20,000 nucleotides of DNA, from the IMG/VR virus record IMGVR_UViG_3300035424_000203. One strand, given 5' to 3'. Positions within the stretch are counted from its first letter, which is position 1; the number at the start of each line of letters is the position of its first letter. Shown piece after piece: positions 1 through 19,835 of the stretch. The stretch comes from an uncultured virus (IMG/VR IMGVR_UViG_3300035424_000203) (Duplodnaviria > Heunggongvirae > Uroviricota > Caudoviricetes). Below the pieces are notes generated by a model, which worked only from the letters and a program-made list of their open reading frames with translations, ran no database searches and was not told the DNA's origin. Position numbers and translations under genes: made by a program.

Positions 1-95
1 TTCCTATAAATGGGGAAAATGAAATAGAAAATGTGTATTTATTATTGGAGCATATAATAAGCAATGACTAAAAGCGACTAAAGAAAGGCGATTCA

Positions 96-3000
96 ATGAA
101 TAATGAAAATGTTTTAAAAGCAAAAAAAGAAGGATTTGTACCTGTACAGTATAGGATTATCAATCTTACATCTGATGAGATTGTCAATAGTGTCACAATT
201 AATGGAACTATGACAGTATATAAAGAAGATGGAAAATCTTATGAAAGAAAAGCAGAAATACATAAGGTTACACCATATACTATAGATGAATTGAAAGAAA
301 AAAATATGCTGATTACGGTTGCAGATGATATTTTGTTCTATGAGATTAGGAAACTAAAAGGATTAAACGACACAACTAAAACACCAAATCAACAACAATA
401 TGACGCATATTTAGAAGTTAAGAAAATGCGAAATAATATTAAAGAGATGAAGAGGGCAGATGAACCAGATATTGAATCTATTCTAAAAGAAACAAAAAGA
501 TTAGATAAATATTTGTTTGTTAAAGATGTAATCAGTGTTGAGAATCGTTCTGGAGATTATAAAAAATTTGGCGTAAAAGGATTTTATTATGGTGATGTAT
601 TATATACAAGAAATTCTGCATCCAGTAGTAATTTAAAGGGCAATACAGTACAGTTTGTTAGAGATGATTTGAATATAAAGTTACAGCCGATACTACAAGC
701 AGGACACAAGGACATTTCACAAGAAGCATTAGTTGTTCCTGAAAAGTATGGGGCATATATGGGTTTATCAACAACAGGAGTAACATTTGTTAGTAGTCCT
801 AGAGTATGTGTAATTCCAGATTTTGAGCATTTGACTTTTGATGATGAAGTATATTTTGTTACTAAAAAAGGTGAGATTATAAAAAAAGAAGCTATAAATA
901 CTGTTGAATATTCAATAGAAATGCGGAAATTCAAAGATACTGGTAATGATGGTGAAACAGTATATATGAATAGCTTTGATGGGATGGGATTAGTTGATCC
1001 GACATTTTTAAAAATGAAATGGCAGCAGGAATTACATTTATCTTATACCCCTTCAGCCTTAAATATGAGAAGTAAAAGCGTAAAGGGATTATTAGTGACA
1101 TTTCCTTTTAAAGAACTTGCACAGGAATTAGGAAGAGAGTACACAACTGATATATTAGGACAAAAAATGCGGATTAAAGACATTGATGTATTTTTAACAA
1201 TAAGTCAATGGAAAAACCATTCATTGTATGATGATGATTTTAGAATTTATGAGCGAAATATAGATAATGTTATTTGGGGAGTACAACGTGTTTCACCCAA
1301 AAGAGATAAAGATAATGTTAAACTGAATTATCAGGCAGAACAAACGAGCAATATTCAATCGGATACTGATATAGAAAGACTTTGTGATCCGACTGGGAAA
1401 TATTTTGAACAGATGGCAGAGGGTAATGATGCGGTAGTTCTTTTTAGTTTAATGAATGACATTATTATATCCAATGAAGACAATATGGAAATTGAATGTG
1501 TAGAAAATGTGACAGAGAGCGAGGAAGACTTTTGGAGCAGTGTTGATACAACGCCATTTAATAAAGCACTGCTGAAAAATCTCGATTTACTACAAGATAC
1601 ATATGTCAGAGGACAAATAAAAAAGAATTTGGAATTTGCTTTTAAGCAAGCTAAAGTAGGGAAATTGTATACGGCGCATAATTCAAATTATCAATTTATG
1701 ATTTCTGATCCATATGCTTTAGCACAATGGGCTATATTGCGAGATGAAATAGCAGATGAAAATGGTAACTATCCAACATCTCCCATGAGGAATGGAAAGG
1801 ATAAATTTTATTTTGGATTGATTAAGCCATATCATATTTATAGTAAATATTGGTTAGATAAGAAAGTTGAAAAGGTGGATGCGTGTAGAAGCCCAATGAC
1901 GGACATAGGAGAACATAATCTTCTTACTATATCTAATAATGAAAACACAGATAATGATGCTTTTGAGAAAATGAAAAAGTATTATAGGTATATTTATAGT
2001 GGAATCATTTATAGCGTACATGATATTTCAACGGTAATACACAGTGATTCAGATTGGGATAGTGATTGTGTATTAACAACGGATTTTGATGTGTTGATTG
2101 ATTGTAGATGGGATGTGCCGCCTGTTATGTATGAAAAAGGCTTATCCAAAATGGATAAGAGAGTATATAATGTTAAAACGGCGGTTGAATCTGATTTGAA
2201 AGGATTTGGAAACAAAGTAGGCGTGTATTCTAATATGAGTACAAATTATTTTGCAATGCTTCCCATGTTTAAAGATGCTGAAAGGGTAAAGATTATCAAT
2301 CAAATTAAGAAATTGCGTTTTATAATTGGAGAAGAAATTGACAGTACAAAAACAGGAAAAAAGCCAGATATATCAATGGATTTCATATATCAATCTGAAA
2401 CCAAAGATATGAGCATGGAAGAAAGAGAAAGTGTAAAAGAACATAATAGATTTACACCAGAGTTTCCAGCTTATTTTTGTAGGTATTTAGATGAAAAGAA
2501 AGATCGTCTTTTTCAAAAGTATTATAAAATATGTAGCCTTATATGCCAAAAAGAAACATTTATGACTATGGAAAAGTTCTTGGATAAAGCACAAAACGGT
2601 GATTTGGAAAACGAAAGCGAAAAAGATTTCCTTCGTTTCTTCTTAGATAATAGTCCATTACTATTAACAGATTGTACCATGAATAAGGTTTGTTGGTACT
2701 TTGAAAAGTTGGAGAAAGAATTAAAGGGGAAATTTAAAATAAAAGATGATAACTATATTCTTTTATCCTATGCTGATGAAGTGGAAGTTGATAAAAAATC
2801 CAAGAATATAATTAACAAAACATTTTCATATTATAGAGACATGATACATGAAATATGGAATGAAGCTAGATATGGAAATAATTGTTACAATACGGATAAA
2901 AAGAAAACATATGTAATTAGTAAAAGAGAACAGCTTATTAAAAATTGTAGAAAGGACTTAGAAAAAATAGAAGTAAATCCTATTAAACTATTTAATATTA

Positions 3001-3188
3001 TTGTTTCCGTTCTAAGAGAGCAAAAAAATCTTGAAAGCGTAAATAAATTTATCTGGAATATATTTGATGAAGATATTGTAGATATTATTCCAGAGGGTAA
3101 AAGAAAAATCAGTATGTTTGAAGTGCAAGATGGTGATATGGAAATTTTAGGACGTAGATTTAAAGTTATCGAGGAGGAAATAATATAG
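96..3188 (+). CDS. YonO-like single-subunit two-barrel RNA polymerase (homologous to QDE-1/cellular RdRP), 1030 aa
   Basis: Family motifs appear in the expected order: SSSNLK, KYGAYMGL, VCVIPD, SFDGMGLVDP, MRSKSVKGLL, FLTISQWK, LNYQ, YQFMISDPY, CRSP, the metal-binding loop SDWDSD (DxDGD-like, 2052-2066), GVYSN and IDSTKTG. AAAGG RBS upstream. Confidence 0.88.
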   Translation: MNNENVLKAKKEGFVPVQYRIINLTSDEIVNSVTINGTMTVYKEDGKSYERKAEIHKVTPYTIDELKEKNMLITVADDILFYEIRKLKGLNDTTKTPNQQQYDAYLEVKKMRNNIKEMKRADEPDIESILKETKRLDKYLFVKDVISVENRSGDYKKFGVKGFYYGDVLYTRNSASSSNLKGNTVQFVRDDLNIKLQPILQAGHKDISQEALVVPEKYGAYMGLSTTGVTFVSSPRVCVIPDFEHLTFDDEVYFVTKKGEIIKKEAINTVEYSIEMRKFKDTGNDGETVYMNSFDGMGLVDPTFLKMKWQQELHLSYTPSALNMRSKSVKGLLVTFPFKELAQELGREYTTDILGQKMRIKDIDVFLTISQWKNHSLYDDDFRIYERNIDNVIWGVQRVSPKRDKDNVKLNYQAEQTSNIQSDTDIERLCDPTGKYFEQMAEGNDAVVLFSLMNDIIISNEDNMEIECVENVTESEEDFWSSVDTTPFNKALLKNLDLLQDTYVRGQIKKNLEFAFKQAKVGKLYTAHNSNYQFMISDPYALAQWAILRDEIADENGNYPTSPMRNGKDKFYFGLIKPYHIYSKYWLDKKVEKVDACRSPMTDIGEHNLLTISNNENTDNDAFEKMKKYYRYIYSGIIYSVHDISTVIHSDSDWDSDCVLTTDFDVLIDCRWDVPPVMYEKGLSKMDKRVYNVKTAVESDLKGFGNKVGVYSNMSTNYFAMLPMFKDAERVKIINQIKKLRFIIGEEIDSTKTGKKPDISMDFIYQSETKDMSMEERESVKEHNRFTPEFPAYFCRYLDEKKDRLFQKYYKICSLICQKETFMTMEKFLDKAQNGDLENESEKDFLRFFLDNSPLLLTDCTMNKVCWYFEKLEKELKGKFKIKDDNYILLSYADEVEVDKKSKNIINKTFSYYRDMIHEIWNEARYGNNCYNTDKKKTYVISKREQLIKNCRKDLEKIEVNPIKLFNIIVSVLREQKNLESVNKFIWNIFDEDIVDIIPEGKRKISMFEVQDGDMEILGRRFKVIEEEII

Positions 3189-4072
3189 TGGCGAGTAATT
3201 ATAAGATTAATTGGCAGGACAAGTATCTTTGTGATACTATCCTTGCCAATAAAGATAATTTGGACGAAAATAGATTGAAATATGAGCGTAATTTTTGGAC
3301 GGCATTATTAGTCAAACATTATATTGTATATGATTTATGCAATGGATCAACAGACATTTTAAAATTAAATGAAGTATTGGAAAAGCATAAAAAGGAAATA
3401 ACAGCAAAAGCCAAAGAATATGTTAATGATGATTCAAGAGTAGAAAGTATAATTAAGGGGATAAAGAAGAATATAGACGATTTAAAAGATACAGATAAAG
3501 AAAATAAAAGGGTATTCTTTGCTGATAAACCAGTTGTGATTTATAGAAGTGAAATAGACACTATTCAACAAATCGGGAAAGATTTTACATATAATTCACA
3601 ATTTGGGAAAAGACCAAGAGAAATTTTACAGAAAATTATTTCTGTATTGCTTATATGGCAAAAAGCATATCAAAATCAATATGAAACAAAGCAAGAATAT
3701 GTTCCTGTTATTGAAGAAAAGATTAATAATTCAAAGATTTTTTCTGATAATGGTAGCGAGAGTGGAACAAGAATAAAAAATTACCAGACACTTCTAGAAA
3801 GTGGATTAATAGAATATTACAGACCAGAGATAGAATATAGAAAAAGAAAGAAAAATCCAATTTATCTGTACAAAATTCCATTTATAAGTTATAATGAAAA
3901 TGGTACAGATGAAATTGTTCTAGTTATTAATAAGTTTGAATTGCTGTGCGAACAGATGTTCAGCGGATTTAATGATAAGTTGTTTGTAAACGAATGTCAG
4001 AAGTGCGGGAAAATGTTTGTAGCGAGACGAAAAAGCACAAAAAACTGTGATATTTGTAATAGACACTATTAA
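3188..4072 (+). CDS. Hypothetical phage protein with a C-terminal Zn ribbon, a putative RNAP partner or transcription factor, 294 aa
   Basis: The GTG start overlaps the RNAP TAG stop (TAGTG), with a GAGGAGG RBS at 3171-3177. The C-terminus is CQKC-x13-CDIC. A possible winged-helix segment reads YQTLLESGLIEY. Confidence 0.75.
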   Translation: MASNYKINWQDKYLCDTILANKDNLDENRLKYERNFWTALLVKHYIVYDLCNGSTDILKLNEVLEKHKKEITAKAKEYVNDDSRVESIIKGIKKNIDDLKDTDKENKRVFFADKPVVIYRSEIDTIQQIGKDFTYNSQFGKRPREILQKIISVLLIWQKAYQNQYETKQEYVPVIEEKINNSKIFSDNGSESGTRIKNYQTLLESGLIEYYRPEIEYRKRKKNPIYLYKIPFISYNENGTDEIVLVINKFELLCEQMFSGFNDKLFVNECQKCGKMFVARRKSTKNCDICNRHY

Positions 4073-4122
4073 ATTGGTTATAATTCACATAAAATTTTGA
4101 AGAAAATTATATAGATTGTACA

Positions 4123-4151
4123 TATACAAAATGAAATAAATGTGTTATGAT
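4123..4151 (+). promoter_or_regulatory. Candidate sigma-A promoter overlapping a short palindrome
   Basis: TATACA (4123-4128), 17-bp spacer, TATGAT (4146-4151) with an extended TGn. The inverted repeat TTGTA-cata-TACAA at 4116-4129 covers the -35. Confidence 0.3.
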
Positions 4152-4178
4152 TAAAAGTTTCGCAAAAGTCTTTTTAAT

Positions 4179-4202
4179 ACCCCTTATAAAATAGGGGTTT
4201 TT
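4179..4202 (+). terminator. Hairpin plus T-tract downstream of the RNAP/Zn-ribbon operon (terminator or palindromic binding site)
   Basis: ACCCCT-tataaaat-AGGGGT followed by TTTT. Confidence 0.5.
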
Positions 4203-4253
4203 GTCGTGTGCTTATCCAAGTTATTATATGGTATATAAAATGTTTTATTATGG

Positions 4254-4317
4254 CTATATATAAGTTGTGGAGACTGTATGTAGTGTTATATATGGTTTGT
4301 GGAGACTATATATAAGT
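4254..4317. repeat. Two interleaved pairs of short direct repeats
   Basis: CTATATATAAGT at 4254-4265 and 4306-4317; TTGTGGAGACT at 4265-4275 and 4297-4307 (32-bp period). Confidence 0.8.
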
Positions 4318-4337
4318 GGTAGCATGGTTTAACATTG

Positions 4338-4414
4338 CAACTATGCCAACTTCATAGTTGTTAATATATATCGTAATAGCACTTACGGTTGAATATCTCG
4401 TAGGTGCTATTTTT
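4338..4414 (+). promoter_or_regulatory. Tandem stem-loops directly upstream of the HTH gene RBS (structured leader, attenuator or small RNA 3' end)
   Basis: CAACTATG-N7-CATAGTTG (4338-4360, perfect 8 bp). AATAGCACTTACG-N11-CGTAGGTGCTATT (4375-4411, 13 bp with one G-U) runs into a T-tract. Confidence 0.55.
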
Positions 4415-4430
4415 GTGGAAGGAGTTTTAA

Positions 4431-4604
4431 TTGTTAAAAGAATCAGTAATTGATTTTATCAACAAAAAGGGTGTTAAGAAGTCCTTTATAGCAGATCAAA
4501 TAGGACTTACCCCGTCTCAATTCAGCCTATGGCTGCATGGTAGATTTAGTCTAAATCAAAGTGTAAAAAATAAGTTGGAGAAATATATCAAAGAAAATTC
4601 ATAA
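4431..4604 (+). CDS. Small Cro/XRE-type helix-turn-helix regulator, 57 aa (not in the ORF track)
   Basis: GGAAGGAG RBS at 4417-4424 and a TTG start. Manual translation MLKESVIDFINKKGVKKSFIADQIGLTPSQFSLWLHGRFSLNQSVKNKLEKYIKENS has the XRE pattern IA-xx-IG-xx-xSQFSxWxxG. Confidence 0.8.
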   Translation: MLKESVIDFINKKGVKKSFIADQIGLTPSQFSLWLHGRFSLNQSVKNKLEKYIKENS

Positions 4605-4703
4605 AAAACATATCTTATTCTAAATGTTTCATTAAAATCCCATTATACATTATTCGATATTAGATAACTCTGCCAGTAAAAAAAGACAGGAGGAATTTTA
4701 ATA

Positions 4704-5702
4704 TTGAAGAAAAAGGATACTGTATTAAGATATAGAAATATATCAATTTACCGTAGGGAAGTATTAGAGAAGGTAAACATTAAAAGTGTAGAATGTTTGC
4801 AAGCATATTTAAAAAATCTGACATTGGGGAATTTAAAACCTGAAACGATAGAGAATAATATTGCGACAATTATCAGGTGGCTTGAATATATTTATGAAGA
4901 ATTGGATGATAAATGTATTCTTGATATGACGATAGAAGATATAGAAGAATATGCGTATTATTTAAAATCCAAAAGAGATAATAGACCTCAAACAATTTCA
5001 AGAGTTTTGGCAGTTATCGAAGATATATATAATTATCTTTTGAAAAAGGAAATGGTTAAAAGTAATCCAGTTTCTTATGTAAAACGTCTAAAAGATATAA
5101 GACGAGAATACGAAGTTAAACGGATATTTTTAACAGAAGAACAGGTTGAAAATTTAAAATTGAAATTAGAGGAATACGGAGATATACAATTACAAACTTA
5201 TATAAACTTTGCTCTTTCAACAGCGGCTAGAGCCAATGCGTGTGCAACACTCAAATGGGAACAAATTAATTTTGATAAGCGCATGGCAACGGATGTTATG
5301 GAAAAGAAATCAAAGTTGGTTACATTGTTTTTCAATGAGTATACAAAAAGTCTGCTTTTAAAATTACAAGATTATAGAAAAGAAAAACATATAAATGATG
5401 GTGGTTTTGTATTTATCTCCAATAAATATAGATATTATGAAGATACAGGTGAAAAAACACATATAAGTTCTTCGACATTAGGGAAATGGGCGAACAGAGC
5501 AGGTGAAATGATAGATGTTCCTGATTTGTCACCACATGACCTAAGAAGAACTGCTGCCAATTTATTATTACAAAGAGGTGGTGATATTGGAGTTGTTTCA
5601 CTACTTTTAAACCATGAAAATATTTCTACAACCTTTAAATACTATATCAATAAATCACAAAACGAGTATTTAAAAGAATACAAAGATAAGTTCGACTTTT
5701 AA
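4704..5702 (+). CDS. Tyrosine recombinase/integrase (XerC/D-like phage integrase family), 332 aa
   Basis: AGGAGG RBS and TTG start. N-terminal SAM-like domain. Catalytic set: STAAR (R), EKKSK (K), PHDLRR (HxxR), LLNH (H), TTFKYY (Y). Confidence 0.93.
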   Translation: MKKKDTVLRYRNISIYRREVLEKVNIKSVECLQAYLKNLTLGNLKPETIENNIATIIRWLEYIYEELDDKCILDMTIEDIEEYAYYLKSKRDNRPQTISRVLAVIEDIYNYLLKKEMVKSNPVSYVKRLKDIRREYEVKRIFLTEEQVENLKLKLEEYGDIQLQTYINFALSTAARANACATLKWEQINFDKRMATDVMEKKSKLVTLFFNEYTKSLLLKLQDYRKEKHINDGGFVFISNKYRYYEDTGEKTHISSSTLGKWANRAGEMIDVPDLSPHDLRRTAANLLLQRGGDIGVVSLLLNHENISTTFKYYINKSQNEYLKEYKDKFDF

Positions 5703-5721
5703 AGTCGCTTATATAAAGCAT

Positions 5722-5750
5722 AAAAAGACAGTCTTCGGATTGTCTTTTTT
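5722..5750 (+). terminator. Rho-independent terminator, probably bidirectional
   Basis: AAAAAGACAGTC-TTCG-GATTGTCTTTTTT, with a cUUCGg tetraloop. Confidence 0.85.
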
Positions 5751-5785
5751 ATTGCAAAAATAAAAATAATAGGAGGTCATAATTT

Positions 5786-8700
5786 ATGGCACAAGAAAAC
5801 TTTTGGATTGATCTGGTTGCTACTCTAAAAAAGGCACAGAGTAAAAAACAAGTTCAGTCTGATGCAAAGAATTTGGGAGAAATAAAAGTACCCCTGATTG
5901 GAACGCTTAGTAAAGCTAAGACAAAGGCACAATTAAAACAGGATTTAGCGTCACTAAATGGAACGATAAATCTAACAGGAAAAGTTAATCAAAAAGGTAT
6001 CGTTACATCGGTACAACAGGCAACTTCACAGGCACAGGCGGCGGCAGACAAGAAAAGTATTCAGGTAAGTATGAATCTGAAGAAAGATAAACTTATCAAT
6101 GACATTAAAATACTTGGTCAGCAGAATACGAAAATGTTTAAAGATGCTAATATGTCTGCAAAGTATAATTCTTTATTGGATAATGCAAAATTAGCAACAT
6201 CAAGTAAAGAGATTGCCAATTTAAGATTGCAGTTATCAGCTATGCGGTCAGAAATTAAAGCTACTAATTTAAGTGGATTGACTCTTGGCGATACGTTCAA
6301 GAAAACATTCAAACGTGCTACAGAGTTATTTACTGGTACTGGTGGAGTAATGTTGTTGTCTCAACAGATGCGTAAAGCATGGACAGAAGCTATAAATTTA
6401 GACAAGGCATATACTGATTTGATTAAAGTGCAAGATGAATTGTCGAGGGGCAATTATCCTACTTACTTGGAACAGTGTAATAAAAAAGCACAAGAATTAG
6501 CATCCACTCAAAAAGCATTAATTGAAGGTGCAACGGAATTTTCTAAATCTGGTTATACAAAAACAATAAGTGATGGCTTATCAGAGAAATCAACGATTTT
6601 AGCCAATGTTGGTGATATGAGTGCGTCTGATAGTGCAAAAGCAATTATTTCTGATGTACAGGCATATGATGTTGTAGATGGCTATGATGATGTAATTGAT
6701 AAAGCCAATGCGTTAATCGACAAGTATAATGAGATTGGCAATACTGCAAGCATTACAACAAGTGAGATTGCTAAAGGTGTACAAACGGTAGGTTCGGTTT
6801 TTGCAGATGCAAACACTTCTGTAGATGAATTTATTGCATTATTAGCGGCTGGTAATAGGCAATATCAGGATGCAGATGCTTTAGCATTAGGTCTTCGTAC
6901 TGCGGCATTAAGGATTCGTGGATGTACAGCAGAGTTAGAAATGATGAATGAAGAAACGGAAGGTGTATATACTTCTGCATCTAAATTAGCTGAAAAGATT
7001 GAAGGTCTTACTAATGTTAATGGTACTGGTGGGGTAAAAATACTCGAAGATGATGAAGAAACTTTCCGCAGTATTTATGAAATTTTTCTTGATATTTCAA
7101 AAGTATATAAGGATATGTCGGATACTGACCAGAGCGCACTTCTTGAATTGATAGCGGGCAAACATAGAGCTTCTGCAATTTCGGCAACTCTGAATAATAT
7201 GAGCGAAGCACAAGAAATTTATCAGAGAAGTTTGGAATCGACAGGATCGGCTCAAAGAGAGTATGACAAGTATCTTTCATCAAGCGAGGCAGCGTTAAAC
7301 CGCTTTAAAGCAAGTATGACGGAAACATATCAGTCTGTAATTGACGGTAAGACAGTAACAGGATTATTAAATTGTGGAAATGCGACTTTACAATTTGTAA
7401 ATAGTCTTGGATTAGTAGAATCTACACTAAAAGGACTTATTGCTATTGGTGTTGTAAAAGTTATTACTACATTATCCGCAGCATTTAAAGCATCCGCAAT
7501 TCAGGCAAGCAATTTTGGAACGGCATTAAATACTGTTAAAAATATGTCTACAATGACAAAAGGCACAACTGATTATACTAATGCTTTGAAAACCTTAAAA
7601 GCAGTATCTATTGGTTTATCAGAAACACAGTTAAAACAGGTTTTGGCAAGTAAAGCATTAAGTGAGTCTGATCGTATAGCAATTTTACGGACAACTGGAC
7701 TTACAAAAGCACAGGCACAAGCTAAACTTGCACAAATGGGCTTAACTCAATCTACAAATGCACAAACGGCAGCAAACGGAGCGGCAACAGCAAGTACATT
7801 TAGTCTTACAGCGGCGGTAAAAGGATTTGGTGCGAGTTTAAAGGCAGCCTTTATGAGCAATCCAGTAGGAATTGCAATTATGGCATTGAGTACAGTTATT
7901 GGAATGGTAACATCTGCAATAGATTCAGCCAATCAGGAAGCAGAAGAAGCAAGACAGAAAGCCAAAGATGCGGCTGATACAGCAAGTACGTTATCAAATG
8001 AAATTTCCGAACTAACAGGAAAATATTTAACTTTATCAAATGCGGTTCAGACAGATAAATCTTCAAAAGAGGATTTAATGACTGTACAGGAAGAATTGAT
8101 TAAAAAACTTGGAATTGAAGGAGAAACTATTGATTCTTTAATTGCAAAGTATGGTTCATTAGACGAAGCTATAAAACAAGTGACGCTTGATGAATTAGGA
8201 AATATGGAAAATGATCTTGTTGCAGGAGTAAAAGCGGCAGAAGATGAATTGAAAGAAATAGGAAAAGATTATGAACATTTTTATAGTCTGACAAATAGAA
8301 ATCTTTTATCTTCTAGCGGTGAAGATGCAGTAAGAGCATACAGTGTATTAAATGAAGCTGGTATTATTGATAAAGGTTCTTATGGAACTGGTGGAGGTTC
8401 TATTGTATTAACAGGTGATGATAGTACGGTAGAAGGAATCCTTGAAAATTATCAGAAATTGCAAGATGCTATGAAAGCATTAAGAGAATCTGATGAATTT
8501 ACAGAAGAAGAACTAAAAGATAATCCGGTATTTTTACAAATTTATAATCGTGTTCAAGAAATGAGAGAGTTTGTAGATGGTTATAATGATGCTATTACAG
8601 ACTTAAATCAGAATGTAGCACAGCAACAAATGTTAAGTTCTTTAAAGGGGATGGAATTACCTGATACAGAAGAAGAATTTAATGCTTTCAGAGACAATTT

Positions 8701-12424: not shown

Positions 12425-12427
12425 ACT

Positions 12428-12459
12428 ATACCGCACTCTGAGATATGGGTGCGGTATTT
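12428..12459 (+). terminator. Stem-loop after the tape measure gene (weak terminator or processing site)
   Basis: ATACCGCACTC-N8-GGGTGCGGTAT with only a short T-tail. Confidence 0.5.
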
Positions 12460-12492
12460 ACAATTAATTTAGATAGGAAAAAGGAAACATTT

Positions 12493-12771
12493 ATGAATGA
12501 CATATTGAACAAAGATATCGAGGCAGTCAAAATACTCGTAAAGGAGATTGCTTCCCTGATAAAAACGCATGAACATAAATATGACAAAACCTTTCCATCC
12601 GCAGTTAAAGCTATAAATAGGGATAATACATACACCATCATGGATGACGGAGGGGTTAAGCGGAAAGTAAAATGCTCCATCCCCAATGCTGCTCTAAAGG
12701 TCGGGCAGTATGTATGGGTTAAGGTTCCATGCGGAAGGCTGGAAGACATGCACATATGTGGGGTTAAATGA
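12493..12771 (+). CDS. Small beta-rich (OB-fold-like) tail-module protein, about 92 aa. The start is moved from 12445 to the ATG at 12493.
   Basis: AAGGAAA lies just upstream of ATG 12493, whereas ATG 12445 is inside the hairpin. The gene sits directly after the TMP and contains the LKVGQYVWVKVP beta motif. Confidence 0.65.
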   Translation: MNDILNKDIEAVKILVKEIASLIKTHEHKYDKTFPSAVKAINRDNTYTIMDDGGVKRKVKCSIPNAALKVGQYVWVKVPCGRLEDMHICGVK

Positions 12772-12811
12772 TAATTAAATTACACTGAATAAAGGAGGTA
12801 TAAAGATATAA

Positions 12812-13645
12812 ATGGCAAAACCAGCAGTAAACAAAATAACTCCTTTTGATGCAACCATGAATAAAACGCTCAGTTTCTCCTGGAATGGCAATCAATCATA
12901 CGCAAACCGCTTAATCATATATAATGCAGATACGATGGAGGTCATATATGACAGGAAAATAAGCACATTCCAACATACCCATATTCTCCCTGCTGGCACT
13001 CTTACAAATGGGAAAAAATGGATTGCACAGTTCCAAACATTTGACATGAATAATGCTGCAAGCGAATTATCTGATAAATTATATTTCCAAACTTTAAAGA
13101 CACCACTCTTCTATTTTTACGAATTGGAAAATGGGCAGACTTTGCATTCAGCATTTTATGATGCACAGATATACTATTTACAGGATGATTATGAGGATAT
13201 TCAGTCTTTTAAATTCTATCTTTATGACGGAACAAAAACACTATTGTTGGAAAGCGAAACCATGTATGACAGCACAAAAATAAGATACCAATATAAAGGT
13301 CTTGATAACCATACCATATACTATTTCCGTTGTCATGGCATGACTGTAAATGGTGTGGAAATTGACACTGGATATATTCAGGTATACACAGATTATAGGC
13401 AGCCAGGAGAATACAGCATTATCTATGCAGAGAACGACCCGCTACATGGCTATATCAAATACCACACCAATATAGTGGTAATACAATATAATGGTGACAA
13501 ATCATTCAGTTTTGAGAATGGGATGATAGATTTACGGGGTGACAATGAAGGTATATATTATGACAAAGGTTTTGTTATAGATGGGGATTTTACATTGAAG
13601 AAATACCTAGAAGAAAGATTATTACTGCAAGCCCATATGATATAG
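12812..13645 (+). CDS. Phage tail/baseplate-region protein with FN3-like beta repeats, probably C-terminally truncated
   Basis: AAAGGAGG RBS. Beta-rich, with FN3-like segments (LTNGKKWIAQFQTFD, KGLDNHTIYYFRCHGMT). After GDFTLK it reads off-frame through the 5' region of the next gene. Confidence 0.65.
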   Translation: MAKPAVNKITPFDATMNKTLSFSWNGNQSYANRLIIYNADTMEVIYDRKISTFQHTHILPAGTLTNGKKWIAQFQTFDMNNAASELSDKLYFQTLKTPLFYFYELENGQTLHSAFYDAQIYYLQDDYEDIQSFKFYLYDGTKTLLLESETMYDSTKIRYQYKGLDNHTIYYFRCHGMTVNGVEIDTGYIQVYTDYRQPGEYSIIYAENDPLHGYIKYHTNIVVIQYNGDKSFSFENGMIDLRGDNEGIYYDKGFVIDGDFTLKKYLEERLLLQAHMI

Positions 13646-14250
13646 GGCATTATTCTTATGAAAAAGTTATAGATCCAGACAAATTTTCAACAAGACCTTC
13701 TCATTATGCTTGGTTAAGGCTATTAAGAGAAGTAAAAGAGAATGATGTTACATTGTATGAAGATTGGTATGATTATTGTTCTTTTGAAAATTGGTATGAT
13801 TCTAATAAATATGAGTTTGATAACCAAGAGATTTATTTGAAAAATGGATATTGGGGTGATCCTAATGTTTATTCGCCAGAGACTTGTGTGTTTGTTCCGC
13901 AATGTATAGCCATGATGTTAAGGACGGACTATTTACAACCTCATAGAATGAAAATGAGAAAATATAATCTTCCAGTAGGTATAAATTACGGAAGAAACAG
14001 TAACGGTGATATTAAAAATGGTTATTATATTGTGACATTATCATTAACAGAAGAGGACAGAAGAGTACCCGTAGGAAGAACTGATACATTAGAAGAAGCG
14101 TTTTATTTTTTTAAATACATGAAGGAGCAACATATTAAAATATACGCAGAATCAGTACGGGATAGAATACCAGAGAAACTATATAATTATATGATGAAAT
14201 TTGAGTGGAACGATGACATAAAAAAATACACGGAGGTAAAAGAAAAGTAG
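13594..14250 (+). pseudogene. 5'-truncated HNH-endonuclease-like/AP2 phage protein, paralog 1 (the track calls 13753..14250)
   Basis: The frame is open from 13564 with no ATG, GTG or TTG until 13753. The upstream part (PYDIGHYS...HYAWLRLL) aligns with the N-termini of paralogs 2 and 3. Core motifs are EDWYDYCSFENWY, YSPETCVFVP, NLPVG and TLEEAF. Confidence 0.6.
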
Positions 14251-14849
14251 TGGATTTATTGTTGGATAATGAAATATGGGGATTAAATAAAGATGCCAGA
14301 TTGACAAATGGGATAGGATATTTTGGAAATGATAAGCGATATGAATTTAATAATAAGGCATATAATGTATGGTATCATATTTTAAGACAGATAAAAAACG
14401 ATCCTGAAAATAATTCGATTTGTGAGGTATGGAAAGACTATAATAATTTTTTGGAGTGGTATGATAAGAATTATTATTCAGTGGAAGATGAAAAAATGGA
14501 TTTGTTAAAAGATATATTTGATAAGAATAATCAAATGTATTCGCCAGAGACTTGTGTGTTTGTTCCATACAGAATTACAAGATTGTTAAAAGGAACGGCA
14601 TCTAAAACAAATCTTCCAGTTGGTGTAGGGAAAAAGAAAAATTCAGATATGTATTATTCAACATGTTCTGTTATTAGGCATGGTAAGAAGACTACTGTTA
14701 GACATAGCGGCTTTCATAGTCCTGAAGAAGCGTTTGAACAATATAAAAAGGATAGAAAACAATATATCAAGGATGTTGCAGATTCATATAGATATGATAT
14801 ACCAGAAAAACTATATTATGCCATTATAGAATGGGAGATTGATAAATAA
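14250..14849 (+). CDS. HNH-endonuclease-like/AP2 phage protein, paralog 2, 199 aa, degenerate active site
   Basis: TAGTG coupling and a GGAGG RBS. Motifs GIGY, ICEVWKDYNNFLEWY, LLKDIF, YSPETCVFVP, NLPVGV, SPEEAF, IPEKLY. Confidence 0.75.
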   Translation: MDLLLDNEIWGLNKDARLTNGIGYFGNDKRYEFNNKAYNVWYHILRQIKNDPENNSICEVWKDYNNFLEWYDKNYYSVEDEKMDLLKDIFDKNNQMYSPETCVFVPYRITRLLKGTASKTNLPVGVGKKKNSDMYYSTCSVIRHGKKTTVRHSGFHSPEEAFEQYKKDRKQYIKDVADSYRYDIPEKLYYAIIEWEIDK

Positions 14850-15596
14850 ATGGCAAAAAATAAGATAGATTTAGATTTATGGGGAATTAATGAGGGAGGT
14901 ATACAAGATAATCTTTGCAAGGCTACATATGGAATAGGTTTTTATTCTAATGAAAGCAATATTACAGAAGAAGAAATAAAATCAAAATGTAATGTTATTT
15001 GGAGAAGAATGTTTTCATTATGTTACAGCATTTCTGATTCGTATACTAAAGGTAAAAACGGAAGAGAATACACGTTATGTAAGGAATGGTATGATTACAA
15101 TAATTTTAAGAAATGGTACGATGAAAATTATTATGAATTAGAAAATGAAAATGTTCATTTTTCTCCAATGTGTATAAAAAAGAATAATACACATTTTTGT
15201 CCGCAATTATGTGTATTTGTACCACAATCTATATTAGGTCTGTTATATGGCTATACAAAAGAAGAATATGAAAATAAATGTGTGTGTGGTGTACAAAGAG
15301 TCAAAAGGAAAGACGAAAATAAATACTCCTATAAAAGCGTAATGAAAATTGCAGCAGAATTAAATAAAGGTAGCGATAATTATTATATAGGAACATATGA
15401 TACAGCAGAAGAAGCCTTTATAAATTATAAAATCGTCAAAGAATTATACATAAAAGGTGTAGCTTATCATTATAAAGATAGAATACCAGAGAAATTATAT
15501 AATGCTATGCTGAATTGGGAAATAGAAAAGGATGATAATACTGTAAAATATGAAAACTCAAGAACACGAAAAGACATATTTAGATTACAAAAATGA
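14850..15596 (+). CDS. HNH-endonuclease-like/AP2 phage protein, paralog 3, 248 aa, degenerate active site
   Basis: TAAATG abutment. Motifs GIGFY, LCKEWYDYNNFKKWY, FCPQLCVFVP, YIGTYDTAEEAF (AP2-like), IPEKLY. Confidence 0.75.
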   Translation: MAKNKIDLDLWGINEGGIQDNLCKATYGIGFYSNESNITEEEIKSKCNVIWRRMFSLCYSISDSYTKGKNGREYTLCKEWYDYNNFKKWYDENYYELENENVHFSPMCIKKNNTHFCPQLCVFVPQSILGLLYGYTKEEYENKCVCGVQRVKRKDENKYSYKSVMKIAAELNKGSDNYYIGTYDTAEEAFINYKIVKELYIKGVAYHYKDRIPEKLYNAMLNWEIEKDDNTVKYENSRTRKDIFRLQK

Positions 15597-15735
15597 GCAT
15601 ATGAAAAAATACAGGAATAATCAAGATATTAAAAACGATTGTGCAAGATATATGGGGTTTAAAAATTATCTTGGATTTCTGTCATATCAAATGGAAGGAT
15701 ATTTTCAAAGATCAGGTGATAGATTTGGAGAATAA
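15550..15735 (+). CDS. Possible small hypothetical protein, 61 aa
   Basis: Fills the gap before a hairpin, but overlaps paralog 3 by 47 nt and has no clear RBS. Confidence 0.3.
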   Translation: MKTQEHEKTYLDYKNEHMKKYRNNQDIKNDCARYMGFKNYLGFLSYQMEGYFQRSGDRFGE

Positions 15736-15737
15736 AT

Positions 15738-15765
15738 ACATATAGAGATATATGTTATTTTTTTT
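15738..15765 (+). terminator. Weak intrinsic terminator
   Basis: ACATATA-GAGA-TATATGT followed by TA and T8. Confidence 0.4.
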
Positions 15766-15798
15766 CACAAAAATAATAATTATATGGAGGAATAGTAC

Positions 15799-16341
15799 AT
15801 GAGCAACACAAAGAAAGAAAATAAGATTGTATATTTTGGATCACTGGAACTATTACAAACTATGGCTGAAAATAATGTACTGTATTATTTTAAGTCTGTA
15901 AAATTCAAAGACAAATATCCCTTATTTGGATTTATAGCAGTTCCAAAAGTTTTAAAATTGATTGATAAATTTTCAGAGAAACATTGTGGTGGTACAAATC
16001 ATACTGTAGATGATGTTTCATTGTGGAAAGACAATGTAGGTTTTATTACAAGTGATAAACAAGGCATTGACACGATTATTACAAGAAATATACATATTGT
16101 TAAATCAATTATTCAATATGGGTATGGTTATAGGATTAATAAAATTTACATAGATAAAAGTGGTAAACGTGTATTTAGGTTTTATTCATGTCCAGAAATT
16201 GAAACAATTAAAGCTGATGGAGATAAAGTTAGTCACGATAAATGGGAACGTAAACAGAAAAATACAAAAGAAAAGCCAGTTAATGAAACCATGAAAAAAT
16301 TAATTGATAAGGCTATGACAGATGCACATATAGAAAATTGA
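15799..16341 (+). CDS. Hypothetical phage protein, 180 aa, possibly two tandem DUF5659-like small domains
   Basis: GGAGG RBS. Two segments share a similar strand-helix-strand-strand-FxF-helix pattern. Confidence 0.7.
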   Translation: MSNTKKENKIVYFGSLELLQTMAENNVLYYFKSVKFKDKYPLFGFIAVPKVLKLIDKFSEKHCGGTNHTVDDVSLWKDNVGFITSDKQGIDTIITRNIHIVKSIIQYGYGYRINKIYIDKSGKRVFRFYSCPEIETIKADGDKVSHDKWERKQKNTKEKPVNETMKKLIDKAMTDAHIEN

Positions 16342-16345
16342 AATT

Positions 16346-16651
16346 ATGGGAGAAAATATAATGGATGAAAAAGAATTTGATTATGAAGAATATAGAAATA
16401 ATTTAGAAAAGGCAGTTGAAATTCATGATAAGTTTTACAGGCTTAGAAATATAATAATTTATTTTGTCCTGTATTCTGTATTGTATTCATTTGTGATTAA
16501 ATCATTGATTACAAATGGATTGACAATGTTTTTATCATTGGCACTTGTTTATTTAATAAATAAATTCATGACATATTTATTTGATGAAATAAGATTTACA
16601 ATAAGAATTTTAAAAAAAATCATAACAAGAAAAGGAGAAAGTAATAGATGA
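16346..16651 (+). CDS. Small membrane protein with two predicted transmembrane helices (the start may be ATG 16361)
   Basis: Hydrophobic stretches IIIYFVLYSVLYSFVI and LTMFLSLALVYLI. GGGAG lies upstream of the second ATG. Confidence 0.7.
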   Translation: MGENIMDEKEFDYEEYRNNLEKAVEIHDKFYRLRNIIIYFVLYSVLYSFVIKSLITNGLTMFLSLALVYLINKFMTYLFDEIRFTIRILKKIITRKGESNR

Positions 16652-16794
16652 ACAAGAAGACAAAAGATTTATTAACATTATTAGGAATCGGAGGGTTGCT
16701 ATTTCAGGTAATAAAAACAATAGTTAATGAAGCAAAAGATCAAGTAGTAAAAGATATTAATGAAAAAATTGAAAATATGGAGGAAACTAAATAG
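16648..16794 (+). CDS. Unannotated 48-aa peptide with an N-terminal hydrophobic helix (not in the ORF track)
   Basis: AAAGGAGA RBS at 16631-16638, ATGA overlap with the upstream gene and TAGTG overlap with the downstream gene. Sequence MNKKTKDLLTLLGIGGLLFQVIKTIVNEAKDQVVKDINEKIENMEETK. Confidence 0.75.
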   Translation: MNKKTKDLLTLLGIGGLLFQVIKTIVNEAKDQVVKDINEKIENMEETK

Positions 16795-17420
16795 TGGAAT
16801 ATAATATTGAACTTGGAACGAACATTAAATTTACAGATGAAAATGGAACACATACATTTGTAGAAGGTGATAATGTGATTTGCTGTCGTGGAGAAAAAGA
16901 AAGATATGTAGGAAAAATTACTTGTATTGGTGTTTATCGTGAAGATGAATCATCGGAACCAGAACAGGCTATTTGCATAGATACTTCAAAGAGTAAGACA
17001 AGTTATTCAAGTGAGGTTATTAAAGTAAAGGATATTACATATATCTGCAAAAATATTTTAGATGATAAAAATAACATCCCATTAACAAAAGAGGAACAGG
17101 ATAAAAAGACTTTTATGGGATTATTGACAGGATTAGGATACAAAGATAAAGCAAAAGTAGAAAACGTATATGACCATATGAAAAATGTTATGGATACATA
17201 TGATATTCCATTTGAAAAAGCAGTAGCTTGTACGATTTATGCATTAAGTAATAACTGTAGTATTGAAGTTCCATTAAAAGAAATGTGTGGTGTAGATATA
17301 AAAGAAATTGAAAAAATGATACCAAAACTTGAAAAGGCAGCACAATTTTGTATGGGTATGGCAATAAAATCTCTTGGAGAACTACTTGAACTTATTGGAA
17401 TAGTAGATAAAGATGAATAA
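16794..17420 (+). CDS. Hypothetical protein, 208 aa, with an N-terminal SH3-like beta barrel and a helical C-terminus
   Basis: GGAGG RBS and a coupled GTG start. FVEGDNVIC..YVGKITCI..VIKVKDITYI pattern. Confidence 0.75.
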   Translation: MEYNIELGTNIKFTDENGTHTFVEGDNVICCRGEKERYVGKITCIGVYREDESSEPEQAICIDTSKSKTSYSSEVIKVKDITYICKNILDDKNNIPLTKEEQDKKTFMGLLTGLGYKDKAKVENVYDHMKNVMDTYDIPFEKAVACTIYALSNNCSIEVPLKEMCGVDIKEIEKMIPKLEKAAQFCMGMAIKSLGELLELIGIVDKDE

Positions 17421-17580
17421 TTTAATATAGTGTTTTACAAAAAAGTAACTTGTTAATCTTGTCGAGGTAAGGGCATGATGACTTAATATCGTGTCCTTCC
17501 TAATATTGAGTGATGAATTTTGAAAAGTGAATATAAAGTATAGATGTTAAATGAGATACGTCTTTTATAATAAATTATGA

Positions 17581-17769
17581 TTGGAGTGGTTTTTAATAGG
17601 AATGACGATTGCAAAAGATATTGGTATGGCAAATGTAAGTTTCCTTAAAATAGATAAAACAGAAGAGGAAAGAGCAGAAGAAAAAACAAAATATAATAGC
17701 TTTATGAATTTTATGACGGATATTATTGTAAAGTATGGACTTAATGAAAAATTAGACGAAGATAGATAA
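17581..17769 (+). CDS. Small hypothetical protein upstream of the serine integrase, start uncertain (17581, 17602 or 17626)
   Basis: Short ORF with an amphipathic C-terminal helix (FMNFMTDIIVKYG). Such ORFs often precede serine integrases. Confidence 0.45.
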   Translation: MEWFLIGMTIAKDIGMANVSFLKIDKTEEERAEEKTKYNSFMNFMTDIIVKYGLNEKLDEDR

Positions 17770-17779
17770 TAGGTAAGAT

Positions 17780-17825
17780 AACCAGTTGGAAAGTGTACCG
17801 ATAAATGGTATAATTGAAACTGGTT
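17780..17825 (+). promoter_or_regulatory. Sigma-A promoter of the integrase, bracketed by an inverted repeat
   Basis: TTGGAA (17786-17791), 17-bp spacer, TATAAT (17809-17814) with an extended TG. Inverted repeat AACCAGTT (17780-17787) / AACTGGTT (17818-17825). Confidence 0.7.
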
Positions 17826-17861
17826 GTTTTTAATTTATGAGAAAATTAAGAAGGTGTTACA

Positions 17862-19835
17862 ATGGAATCGAGAAAAGGAAAAAAGTGTGTATTATATTCC
17901 AGAGTATCAACGGAAATGCAAATAGATGGATATTCCCTAGAAGCACAGAGCAATGGATTAAAGCGGTATGCAGATAGAGAAGAGATGCTTGTTATAGATA
18001 CATATGAGGATGCCGGAAAGTCTGGTAAGTCCATAGAGGGCAGACCGGCTTTTAAACGTATGCTTAATGACATATCGCAAGGTTTAGAGATCGACTATAT
18101 TCTTGTGTATAAATTATCACGTTTTGGCAGAAATGCAGCGGATATACTTAGTTCACTAGAATATGTACAGTCTTATGGTGTGAATCTTATTTGTATTGAA
18201 GAGGGTATTGATTCATCTATGACCGCAGGACGGTTACTTATATCTGTATTGTCAGCGGTAGCGGAGATTGAAAGGGAGAATATTATAGAGCAGACCATGA
18301 ACGGACGTAGAGAAAAAGCAAGACAGGGCGGCTGGAATGGTGGTTTTGCTCCATATGGATATAAACTGGAAAATAATAAACTACTTATTGCAGAAGATGA
18401 AGCAGACGTAATAAGAATCATATTTGATAAATTTGTCAATACAGATATGGGATATAATGGTGTTGCAAAATATTTGAATTTGCAAGGGATTAAAAAGAAA
18501 GTCAGACAAAATGGAACACTTACAGCGTGGAGTTCAAAAACAGTTAAGGAATTGATAGACAATCCTGTTTATTGCGGTAAATTAGCATATGGTAGACGTA
18601 TTAGAGAGAAAGTAAAAGGCACGAAGAATGAATATAAGCAAGTTAGAACAGATAATTATATTCTTGTGGACGGAGAACATGAAGCCATTGTCAGCGTAGA
18701 AGATTGGAATAAAGCGAAAGTAAAACGTGAAGCAACTGGAATTAAAGCACCATCAAAAGTAGGTAGGGATCGGGCGCATTTATTGACTGGAATATTAAAG
18801 TGTCCTGTTTGCGGAAGTCCTATGTATACAAATAAAAACGCATGGACTAACAAAGATGGTACATATAATGAAAGATTTTACTATGTGTGTAGCAGAAGAA
18901 GGCAACAAAGGGGCGTGTCATGCAATTATTCAGCACAGTTGATGAAAGAATCCATTGAGCCAGATGTAGTATTGGCAATTAAACAGCTTGTGACCAATGA
19001 AGAGTTTGCGAAGGAAATTAAAAGCAGAATTGGCACAGAGATTGACACTACAGAGATTGACAGGGAAATCAAAAATTACGAATCAAATTTACGGCAAGTA
19101 GAAAACAATAAGCGCAGACTTGAAAGCGATATAGATTCACTTCCTGAAGACTCTAAATATCGTGACCGAAAATTACAGGATATGAACCGTAGACTAGATA
19201 ATTTATATGATACAATCTACGAGTTGGAAGATAAGATTGAAGAAGCCTATGCAAAGCGCAAATCAATAGAGATGAGTGCAATCACGATTGATAATGTATA
19301 CAAGGTGCTGCTTAATTTTGATAGGGTATATGATCGCTTGAATGATGAAGAAAAGAAAACCATGATTCAAGGATTTATCAAGGAAATTCAGATATATCCA
19401 AAAGAAGAACAGGCAAAATATAAGCATCCGATAAGAAATATCACATTTAACTTTCCTATAATCATAAATGGGGAAGAAGTGGATAAGATTTCGTGGGAAA
19501 ATGGGAATACCGTGGAGACGTGCGTCCTCTTGTCGCGTAAAAAATTAGGAGGCAAATCCACTAAAATTGAGATAGAAATTGACCTAAGTGAAGCAGATAG
19601 GCGGGAATGCATCGGCACAGCAACCTATCAGGAAATTAAGGATTATATATGGGAGCATTATCAAATGAAAGTTTCACATTTGTACATAGCACAGATTAAG
19701 AGGAAACTTGGCATTATTGAAAGGGAAAACTACAATCTGCCTAAAAATGAGAATGAAAAAGTTCCCAACTGCCCAGAGGAGAAAGAAAGGATGATTAAGG
19801 AAGCATTGGAATATTTTGGTATGATAAAGAGATAA
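17862..19835 (+). CDS. Large serine recombinase (integrase), fused in frame to an RlmD-type C-terminal segment, 657 aa
   Basis: Catalytic YSRVST motif, DAGKSG, RPAF, KLSRFGR, a recombinase domain (PYGY, NPVYCG, HEAIV), a Zn ribbon (CPVC...C...C) and a coiled coil. Confidence 0.95.
   Translation: MESRKGKKCVLYSRVSTEMQIDGYSLEAQSNGLKRYADREEMLVIDTYEDAGKSGKSIEGRPAFKRMLNDISQGLEIDYILVYKLSRFGRNAADILSSLEYVQSYGVNLICIEEGIDSSMTAGRLLISVLSAVAEIERENIIEQTMNGRREKARQGGWNGGFAPYGYKLENNKLLIAEDEADVIRIIFDKFVNTDMGYNGVAKYLNLQGIKKKVRQNGTLTAWSSKTVKELIDNPVYCGKLAYGRRIREKVKGTKNEYKQVRTDNYILVDGEHEAIVSVEDWNKAKVKREATGIKAPSKVGRDRAHLLTGILKCPVCGSPMYTNKNAWTNKDGTYNERFYYVCSRRRQQRGVSCNYSAQLMKESIEPDVVLAIKQLVTNEEFAKEIKSRIGTEIDTTEIDREIKNYESNLRQVENNKRRLESDIDSLPEDSKYRDRKLQDMNRRLDNLYDTIYELEDKIEEAYAKRKSIEMSAITIDNVYKVLLNFDRVYDRLNDEEKKTMIQGFIKEIQIYPKEEQAKYKHPIRNITFNFPIIINGEEVDKISWENGNTVETCVLLSRKKLGGKSTKIEIEIDLSEADRRECIGTATYQEIKDYIWEHYQMKVSHLYIAQIKRKLGIIERENYNLPKNENEKVPNCPEEKERMIKEALEYFGMIKR
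19500..19540. other. Probable attR junction (insertion site in the rlmD 3' region)
   Basis: ACC GTG GAG ACG TGC GTC CTC TTG TCG CGT encodes TVETCVLLSR, matching the RlmD/RumA terminal motif HVE(T/C)VxLLxR. The stretch is locally GC-richer. Confidence 0.7.
19512..19835 (+). pseudogene. rlmD: Displaced 3' end of 23S rRNA m5U methyltransferase (RlmD/RumA) with its clostridial C-terminal extension
   Basis: VETCVLLSR followed by ATYQEIKDYI..KVSHLYIAQIKRKLGIIERENYN..CPEEKERMIKEALEYFGMI, which I recognise as the extension seen on Lachnospiraceae RlmD proteins. Confidence 0.7.

Follow-up and report, generated by a model that had tools for sequence, protein, structure and literature searches.

A reduced integrative element with a YonO-type RNA polymerase and a chimeric tape measure gene: a possible satellite-like parasite of large phages

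The stretch of DNA considered here, 20,000 nucleotides of the uncultured virus record IMGVR_UViG_3300035424_000203 (the window in what follows; L and G numbers denote the related loci and the genome or virus records with which it was compared), carries phage-like genes whose substantial open reading frames (ORFs) all lie on the plus strand, the main ones being intact. Judging from the sequence of its relatives, it is the right-hand 20 kb of an integrative element of about 50 kb. An earlier note, made from the letters alone, had seen there an RNA polymerase (RNAP), a Zn-ribbon gene, a helix-turn-helix (HTH) gene, a tyrosine recombinase and a giant tape measure protein (TMP), followed by a serine integrase, and had proposed a phage satellite-like parasite, an interpretation that what follows supports in part. 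All these genes are indeed present, on a single strand, and Pfam and PHROG scans of 16 window ORFs support the names given to them in the following list.

96..3188, plus strand: predicted YonO-type single-chain RNA polymerase, 1030 aa (phrog_8308; tblastn and BLASTP matches to YonO)
3188..4072, plus strand: 294-aa gene with a C-terminal Zn ribbon (CxxC...CxxC), its start overlapping the RNAP stop
4179..4330, plus strand: putative intergenic control region, with a terminator-like hairpin at 4179-4198 and, at 4265-4330, a 32-nt tandem repeat (x2.1)
4431..4604, plus strand: HTH-like protein, 57 aa (HTH read by eye only)
4704..5702, plus strand: tyrosine recombinase-fold protein, 332 aa (PF00589, E 2e-24; phrog_1, E 3e-46)
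5786..12424, plus strand: TMP, 2212 aa (PF10145, E 2e-14; phrog_4211, E 1e-47)
5786..9328, plus strand: N-terminal part of the TMP, residues 1-1181, element-specific and conserved (PF10145, phrog_4211)
9329..13600, plus strand: imported segment, comprising the C-terminal half of the TMP (to 12424), a 108-aa ORF (12445-12771) and a truncated 277-aa ORF (12812-13645)
13753..15596, plus strand: three tandem paralogs of 165, 199 and 248 aa (C-terminal half of the phrog_953 'HNH endonuclease' family)
15799..17769, plus strand: four ORFs without assigned function, 180, 101, 208 and 62 aa (no Pfam or PHROG match)
17862..19835, plus strand: large serine integrase, 657-aa ORF (PF00239, PF07508, PF13408)
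19512..19526, plus strand: att core GTGGAGACGTGCGTC, 15 nt, encoding VETCV

The RNAP matches phrog_8308 (E 6e-57) and, used as a tblastn query, it found 16 phage records and led to yonO of the SPbeta-type Bacillus phages Goe12, Goe13 and SPbetaL8 (E 6e-7 to 9e-6). BLASTP against YonO of phage Goe12 gave E 7e-15 over 568 columns and aligned the motif DWDSD with DNDGD of YonO, whose aspartate triad is catalytic and was shown to be essential by Forrest et al. (PMC5467207). Residues D651, D653, D655 and D657 are invariant in 12 aligned relatives, and PF05183 is precomputed on 8 of 18. Homology and the aspartate triad together mark the protein as a predicted YonO-type single-chain RNA polymerase. 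In all loci where a TMP gene lies next to the RNAP (TMP-adjacent loci), the 294-aa Zn-ribbon gene comes directly after the polymerase, with C270, C273, C287 and C290 invariant in 11 relatives; it has no family match in Pfam or PHROG, and its structure model (pLDDT 61) was too poor for a structure search. The 57-aa HTH-like gene also keeps its position in all of these loci, at 35-100% identity, and has no Pfam or PHROG match. Between the two genes, where the repeat of 4265-4330 has 2.1 copies at 80% match, the region 4179-4330 is a candidate operator or promoter for the TMP cassette, a role suggested by its position.

What is missing from the window matters as much as what is there. None of the 16 ORFs matched a head, packaging, tail-tube, chaperone or lysis family in Pfam or PHROG, as the earlier note had recognized for the genes up to the att junction. 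The TMP starts 1.7 kb after the Zn-ribbon gene, as had been estimated, and 2.6 kb after the RNAP. In Enterocloster phage PMBT24 (OQ326496.2), a true phage whose host belongs to the same family, terminase, portal, capsid, major tail and other genes come after the RNAP (9612-12107), and baseplate and lysin genes after the TMP (32035-36561); about 20 kb lies there between RNAP and TMP versus 2.6 kb here, which bears out the suspicion that the morphogenesis block is gone. The spacing is similar in four Enterocloster CB-type phages (CB473P1-type), with an RNAP near 0.4-2.2 kb and a TMP match near 25.6-27 kb.

This reduced layout is not peculiar to one strain. A scan of viral contigs with the window RNAP as a single protein found nothing, and an RNAP alignment (A1) was used for the locus search instead; it fetched 126 further loci, and the 127 sequences analysed, window and L001 included, comprise some loci that are the same contig in two collections. 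The RNAP is at least 38% identical to that of the window in 23 of them. All 19 of these that have at least 3 kb of downstream sequence (38-99% RNAP identity) show a homolog of the TMP N-terminal part 2118-2605 bp after the RNAP, and neither TerL nor portal was found in any of the 19; the remaining four have less than 2.3 kb downstream. Among the 104 loci with an RNAP at 35% identity or less, TerL lies 2.9-9 kb downstream in 70 and a portal gene is present in 53, with an adjacent TMP in none. Of four large relatives sampled with PHROG profiles, L059, L103 and L026 yielded both TerL and portal and L017 did not; L102 yielded the TMP only. A FastTree phylogeny of 73 RNAPs, with near-duplicates removed and RNAPs split into ORFs of less than 750 aa left out, gathers the 14 TMP-adjacent rows and two rows without downstream sequence in one clade with a stem length of 1.08 and a local support of 100, the rooting being at midpoint and the support local and SH-like only. 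The comparison of nonsynonymous and synonymous substitution rates (dN/dS) advised by the earlier note was made between window and L001 by the Nei-Gojobori method, at dS 0.09-0.25 (against the 82% clade dS was saturated): it gave 0.044 for the RNAP, 0.051 for the Zn-ribbon gene, 0.044 for the tyrosine recombinase and 0.060 for the N-terminal part of the TMP. The layout is therefore conserved, monophyletic and under strong purifying selection, rather than a single-strain deletion among full prophages, an outcome that the earlier note had set against its own proposal. A synteny of RNAP, Zn-ribbon, HTH-like and TMP genes without TerL or portal was recovered as anticipated, while the tyrosine recombinase, expected to be part of it, occupies this place in the window's own subclade only, and the serine integrase is not universal. 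There are hundreds of member sequences. We read the lineage as ancient, maintained by selection and reduced from SPbeta-like (YonO-RNAP) siphophages, devoid of head, packaging, tail-tube, baseplate and lysis genes.

The whole element can be seen in the closest relative. L001 belongs to a 165.9-kb contig (G001:C17) of the metagenome-assembled genome (MAG) of an uncultured Lachnospiraceae, and is 96.1% identical to the window over window 1-9329 and 94% over 13581-15815. An island of about 52 kb (about 97.4-149.2 kb) and about 30% GC lies there within DNA of about 50% GC, bordered by an rlmD-like methyltransferase gene on one side and by host genes on the other. From left to right, it comprises the rlmD-like gene, a 645-aa primase-like gene, phrog_953-like genes, two sigma-like genes and an HNH gene, then a second tyrosine recombinase, a regulator with a LexA DNA-binding domain, TubR/TubZ, a cold-shock protein, ClpX and a GHKL-Toprim gene, and finally the gene string of the window, with the serine integrase last. 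Past that integrase, before host genes are reached, one finds an IS200 transposase and a RhuM gene, then another serine recombinase, 49% identical to the first. No terminase, portal or capsid match was found among the island ORFs scanned, so that the virion genes that might have stood just upstream of the window are absent up to attL in this 96% relative. Among the island ORFs without a family, just two are longer than 350 aa, at 487 and 380 aa, and they are not kept in the more distant set of elements that we call the ~40% clade. The GHKL-Toprim gene (L001 6465-8909), just upstream of the RNAP and next to the ClpX homolog, encodes an 814-aa fusion of a GHKL ATPase with a TopoVI-A/Spo11 Toprim, and is absent from the ~40% clade. 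At the left end of the element, a 154-aa gene (L010 7663-8127, that is G001:C17 147663-148127) is 60% identical between element clades and has homologs at 30-34% directly upstream of the first TMP gene of the large phages G003 and G004 (L163 667-1107); its family has no match in the PDB, and it may be a second retained gene of the tail module. The same MAG harbours a second YonO-type locus (G001:C33; L146 2764-12610), where a 916-aa RNAP (phrog_8308, E 6e-248), a virion protein, a holin, an endolysin, an XhlA-like gene and a 401-aa TMP fragment are found within about 10 kb; this one looks like a truly decayed prophage.

The other small elements repeat the picture. Records of the ~40% clade (G002, G005-G008) measure 36-45 kb at a CheckV completeness of 74-94%, whence a full length of about 48 kb. 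A PHROG scan of G002 retrieved the same gene set and no virion genes. G005 is colinear with the G001 island to its left end, beyond which it has a sigma-like factor, a tyrosine integrase and genes without assigned function, and G012 shares the gene order of G005, with a tyrosine integrase in place of the serine integrase. G012 measures 47,376 bp, is flanked by 89-bp direct terminal repeats and is rated 100% complete by CheckV. The portal family phrog_2739, which matched the 156-kb phage G009 at E 1e-75, was found in none of four small elements (G012, G013, G005 and G002); in G012 neither tblastn nor the portal family search revealed TerL or portal, its unique ORFs lying outside the profile-library scans. 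The TerL family phrog_2, tried on the virus records, was discarded as uninformative, the positive control G009 being negative as well, although tblastn with the TerL of another phage did find TerL in G009. TubZ/TubR, ClpX, the primase-like gene and regulators make up the conserved core. The A1 profile recognized no RNAP in G009-G013, because these carry another RNAP lineage. In G012, which is 83-98% identical in nucleotides to G005 on both sides of the RNAP cassette, a 933-aa protein (L196 16597-19398; G012 36597-39398) replaces the 1149-aa RNAP of G005 and its partner gene; the TMP follows about 0.9 kb later, so that the adjacency is kept. This protein is 34% identical to the RNAP region of G009 (E 9e-117) and 27% to the PMBT24 RNAP (E 5e-14), displays a DEDTD motif, read by eye, and has no significant direct BLASTP match to YonO. 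It thus appears, from the comparison of G012 with G005, that the RNAP cassette moves between otherwise near-identical elements.

The integrase of the window has the domains of a large serine recombinase (Resolvase, E 2e-40; Recombinase, E 6e-21; Zn_ribbon_recom, E 2e-11) and is 96% identical to that of G001 over residues 1-577, diverging beyond; residues 540-656 resemble, at 34% identity (118 aa), the C-terminal end of the rlmD-like ORF found on the far side of the G001 island. The integrase ORF continues beyond the att core and finishes, at 19835, with an rlmD-type tail. The core matches once in the window (none in 200 shuffles) and elsewhere, among 205 loci, only in the rlmD-like gene of G001, at the left end of the island, encoding VETCV in integrase and methyltransferase alike: the att junction that had been proposed is real. 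In G001 the left end of the element provides rlmD with a diverged replacement tail, and the rlmD-type tail of the window (GC 35-38%) may be either the native end of the host gene or the left end of a further element in tandem. A small second element is present in tandem at the same att site of G001 (L007, G001:C17 93032-97134), which combines an IS200-type transposase and a RhuM-family gene with the serine recombinase that is 49% identical, and the first integrase ORF of G001 has a truncated rlmD-type tail at its end. In the ~40% clade a tyrosine integrase is used instead. As for the tyrosine recombinase ahead of the TMP, which no subclade other than that of the window has in this place, its HxxR and C-terminal Tyr motifs are present, as read by eye. 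By analogy with the SPbeta repressor SroF, which has a tyrosine-recombinase fold without the catalytic Tyr according to a preprint (10.1101/2025.11.27.690993), it may be a regulator, though its catalytic Tyr seems to be kept.

Most revealing of all is the mosaic make-up of the TMP, the one virion gene recognized in the element. The sequences of window and L001 part at 9329 and come together again at 13581, L001 having 1.6 kb there instead, and the TMP is 2212 aa long in the window versus 1246 aa in L001. The giant TMP that had been noticed is thus authentic, although its size is a recent acquisition and not a trait of the family. Its N-terminal part is 98% identical to that of L001, 40-45% to those of the ~40% clade, and only 22-25% to the first TMP (TMP1) of the large phages. 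Downstream the nucleotide identity with G003, a 90-kb virus record (CheckV completeness 58%), is 81% over 9856-12455 and 98.4% over 12473-13600. On its minus strand, G003 has in order a 912-aa RNAP, TerL, a portal-sized gene, a 932-aa TMP1, an accessory island, a 1679-aa TMP2 and a 403-aa gene, and it is of the first 263 aa of this last protein, which follows the TMP in large phages, that ORF 12812-13645 (277 aa) is a copy, at 100% identity; the truncated tail gene suspected by the earlier note is therefore genuine. The 403-aa protein, for which 79 homologs were found, on contigs that reach 217 kb in some cases, is predicted to fold as FN3-like beta-sandwich repeats, with a chain of the T5 tail-tip complex among the structural matches, at rank 38; the modelled fold would suit a tail-tip protein, without being specific to one. 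Two TMP-like genes 10-11 kb apart are seen in the ~155-kb phages (G003 2850-20609, L162/L163; G009 131.6-148.6 kb), the gap of G003 holding an island with an Abi-alpha-like gene and an ATPase-like gene; in the small elements both TMP parts are in one ORF. Since the N-terminal part is so distant from TMP1 while the C-terminal part is shared with G003, the window TMP is an element-type N-terminal part fused to the C-terminal part of a large-phage TMP2. It is thus a recent chimera, with the C-terminal half and the truncated next gene coming from a ~155-kb YonO-type phage. The imported segment has 43-52% GC versus about 30% in its flanks; an origin of this half from a prophage at host GC was considered and rejected, as the large phages' own gene rises in the same way within genomes of 24-30% GC. 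The ~40% clade repeats this mosaic pattern. The last 4.1 kb of the 2443-aa TMP gene of G002 is 91.5% identical in nucleotides to G009, with no other match of at least 150 nt between the two. Relatives of the TMP C-terminal part of the ~40% clade, at 73-98% protein identity, are found on 16 contigs of 79-167 kb, where homology begins only at about residue 1000-1120 of the element TMP.

How are we to understand an element of this kind? Genes for its own integration or excision and for its replication appear to be there (serine integrase, att core, primase-like gene, a terminally redundant relative), genes to form a particle of its own are lacking, and the terminase, portal, capsid and tail genes which a complete SPbeta-like prophage displays downstream of its RNAP are absent. 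We give about an even chance to the view that it is a satellite-like parasite of the ~155-kb YonO-type phages, building or disturbing chimeric tails. This would be the simplest account, because the element has no particle genes and yet keeps a tail protein whose distal half tracks these phages. The element would excise from rlmD by means of its own integrase, replicate as a circle, and transcribe its late cassette with its own RNAP; it would supply a TMP whose C-terminal half matches the tail tip of the helper, so that chimeric tails might form, the helper's tail assembly might be disturbed, or both, heads and the remaining parts being provided by the helper. The possession of tail-module DNA in common with the ~155-kb phages fits such an alteration of, or interference with, helper tail assembly. 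Going one step further, and with rather less than even confidence, we may see here a new family of giant satellites (47-52 kb) of the ~155-kb YonO-type phages in gut Lachnospiraceae, the first with an RNAP of their own. That polymerase would give a late programme independent of the host polymerase, perhaps reading the helper's late promoters; the TMP would keep its own N-terminal part and swap its C-terminal half to fit the tail tip of the helper, the RNAP cassette being swapped too.

Several observations weigh against this satellite-like life style. That the element excises, needs a helper and is packaged, and what its TMP does there, we infer; no direct sign of packaging, of helper dependence or of transfer was met with. 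A small terminase, a capsid-size factor, a tail chaperone and a baseplate hub were not found among the ORFs scanned. Satellites are typically about 10-20 kb, far below the 47-52 kb seen here. In four loci (L001, L094, L095 and L101) the TMP is short and lacks the shared C-terminal half, and the import in the window may be an accident, because it truncated the next gene. The G001 MAG contains no match to the C-terminal half of the window TMP or to the 277-aa ORF, which leaves co-residence with a large phage unsupported, and holds elsewhere only the decayed RNAP locus of C33 and two ordinary terminases. Finally, TubZ/TubR, the primase-like gene and the terminal-repeat contig are equally expected of a plasmid-like replicon.

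It is to this latter idea that we must first turn. A phage-derived plasmid-like or integrative replicon would make no particles; it would persist by TubZ/TubR partition, integration and vertical descent, and retain RNAP and TMP for some function outside virions. The conserved core of TubZ/TubR, ClpX, primase-like gene and regulators suits it well, as do the 47.4-kb terminal-repeat contig and the failure to find a packaging gene. We nevertheless hold it to be rather unlikely: the N-terminal part of the TMP evolves at dN/dS 0.06, and we know of no role for a TMP without a tail; the C-terminal half has been exchanged repeatedly with the tail genes of large phages, and nothing else has; and the spread over diverged hosts and samples requires a route of transfer. 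Alternatively, the element might gain through survival of the host population, as a defence element whose TMP, expressed late by its own RNAP, acts as a poison subunit in the tail-tip complex of the large phage. This would explain why the TMP C-terminal half matches co-circulating large phages in two clades, and tail-assembly interference by mobile elements has reportedly been described (PMC11364771). There is a precedent in PLE11, which restricts ICP1 via its TMP pathway (PMC12987554). The short-TMP variants devoid of the matching half are difficult to reconcile with a poison, and the life style of excision and circle suggests mobility; sequence by itself cannot separate defence from the satellite reading, and we regard a purely defensive role as unlikely.

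The truncated 277-aa ORF, the decayed YonO locus in the same MAG (C33) and the TMP of 1246 aa in L001 versus 2212 aa in the window might evoke an ordinary SPbeta-like prophage in decay, its morphogenesis genes deleted, as the earlier note had also envisaged. Conservation of the layout across related loci contradicts this: none of the 19 loci, whose RNAP identity goes as low as 38% and which form one clade, departs from it, the main ORFs are intact, member sequences number in the hundreds, and the dN/dS values (0.04-0.06) give simple decay no support for the RNAP or the TMP N-terminal part, which makes it very unlikely. That the element is an autonomous virus, with structural genes too divergent for recognition or carried by a second partner element, is extremely improbable despite the many ORFs without a family match, as PHROG profiles do detect TerL and portal in the nearest large relatives, the portal family is found in G009 and in none of four small elements, and the only two ORFs of the G001 island without a family and above 350 aa are not conserved in the ~40% clade.

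A few further features of the window may be described before the satellite-like parasite is set among known systems. The intact ORFs had been credited with ribosome-binding sites and terminators; Shine-Dalgarno-like motifs do precede 9 of 15 starts, while the 12 terminator-like sites, with 7.8 +/- 2.1 expected, are not clearly above chance. The phrog_953-type paralogs, of which there are five to seven per element, stand in tandem after the TMP in several clades (window 13753-15596; L001 19383-22850; L010 3183-5240). In the window they show a dN/dS of 0.08-0.11, and an Atlas search with them gave leads only, all to AP2/Arm-type DNA-binding clusters. For the four ORFs at 15799..17769 the Atlas search produced nothing usable, and the 208-aa one is kept in the ~40% clade at 37% identity. 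There are no tRNA genes in the window, megablast of the window against phages and blastn of its right end against plasmids found no match, and neither the TMP nor the RNAP profile nor the 154-aa family gave a usable match when compared with PDB sequences. DNA contigs of two runs are identical to the window over 1-19957, add 3.4-3.5 kb upstream and break at a repeat at 19928-19997. This repeat has a summed depth of up to 740 versus about 19 for the element, with several alternative continuations, and it is probably because of it that assembly stops just past the window. One DNA run shows joints at 8998/18879 and 10144/14969, whose sides (20) are too short for an interpretation. All sampled words of the window were found in 14 of the 24 runs listed, which are recorded as mouse gut, and 10 of the 14 may be the source. 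A single study provided RNA-library contigs, from two of its runs, that overlap portions of the RNAP and integrase genes and the last part of the Zn-ribbon gene; this is not proof of transcription, and the low cover of the TMP in them carries no weight.

Among known systems, the SPbeta-like or YonO phages are the obvious kin. In PMBT24 and in SPbeta (PMC5467207), an RNAP of the same family, with its aspartate triad, heads the late gene string, with a small overlapping gene and DNA-binding proteins behind it; the TMP belongs to the same PHROG family, and there is an integrase-fold late gene. These phages differ by their size of 100-165 kb and by their terminase, portal, capsid, tail, baseplate and lysis genes, of which the element has none. 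Clostridium phage c-st, retrieved by tblastn with the window RNAP, carries TubZ, a tubulin-like partition system, and thus combines a relative of the YonO-type RNAP with tubulin-like partition, as the element does; it is a virion-forming phage of 186 kb, whereas the element is integrated, in the window clade, or a 47-kb circle, with no virion gene but the TMP. A literature search found no description of satellites with an RNAP of their own or of elements such as these. Their records (CheckV 86-100%) are counted as near-complete viruses though they have no genes for particles of their own, which affects gut virome catalogues.

Nearer in life style, perhaps, are the satellites. The EPIP satellites of Mycolicibacterium (PMC12822802, a preprint) are small integrative elements with a serine integrase and a TMP of their own, and are reported to have tails of altered length; small terminase, scaffold, capsid and connector genes, not found here, are listed for them, and they have small genomes and no RNAP. 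The PLE satellites of Vibrio cholerae phage ICP1 are described in PMC12987554 as combining their own TMP, chaperone and hub with helper parts into chimeric tails and as disturbing tail assembly of the helper, and tmp genes are reported there in other satellites. Here too we have a mobile element without most virion genes, and a TMP encoded by the element itself. The likeness is one of description and has its limits: the tail assembly chaperone and baseplate hub of PLE were not found here, no ORF lies between recombinase and TMP, PLE has no RNA polymerase, and its helper ICP1 is a lytic myovirus. The PLE genome measures about 18 kb, versus 47-52 kb here. A private RNA polymerase would, if the satellite reading is true, be a new component in satellite biology, and would raise the question of whether a satellite RNAP reads the late promoters of its helper. 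Experimental proof that satellites reprogram the tails of their helpers is recent (PLE, 2026), and a second, unrelated and much larger lineage in the abundant Firmicutes of the gut would, if confirmed, make tail hijacking a general strategy.

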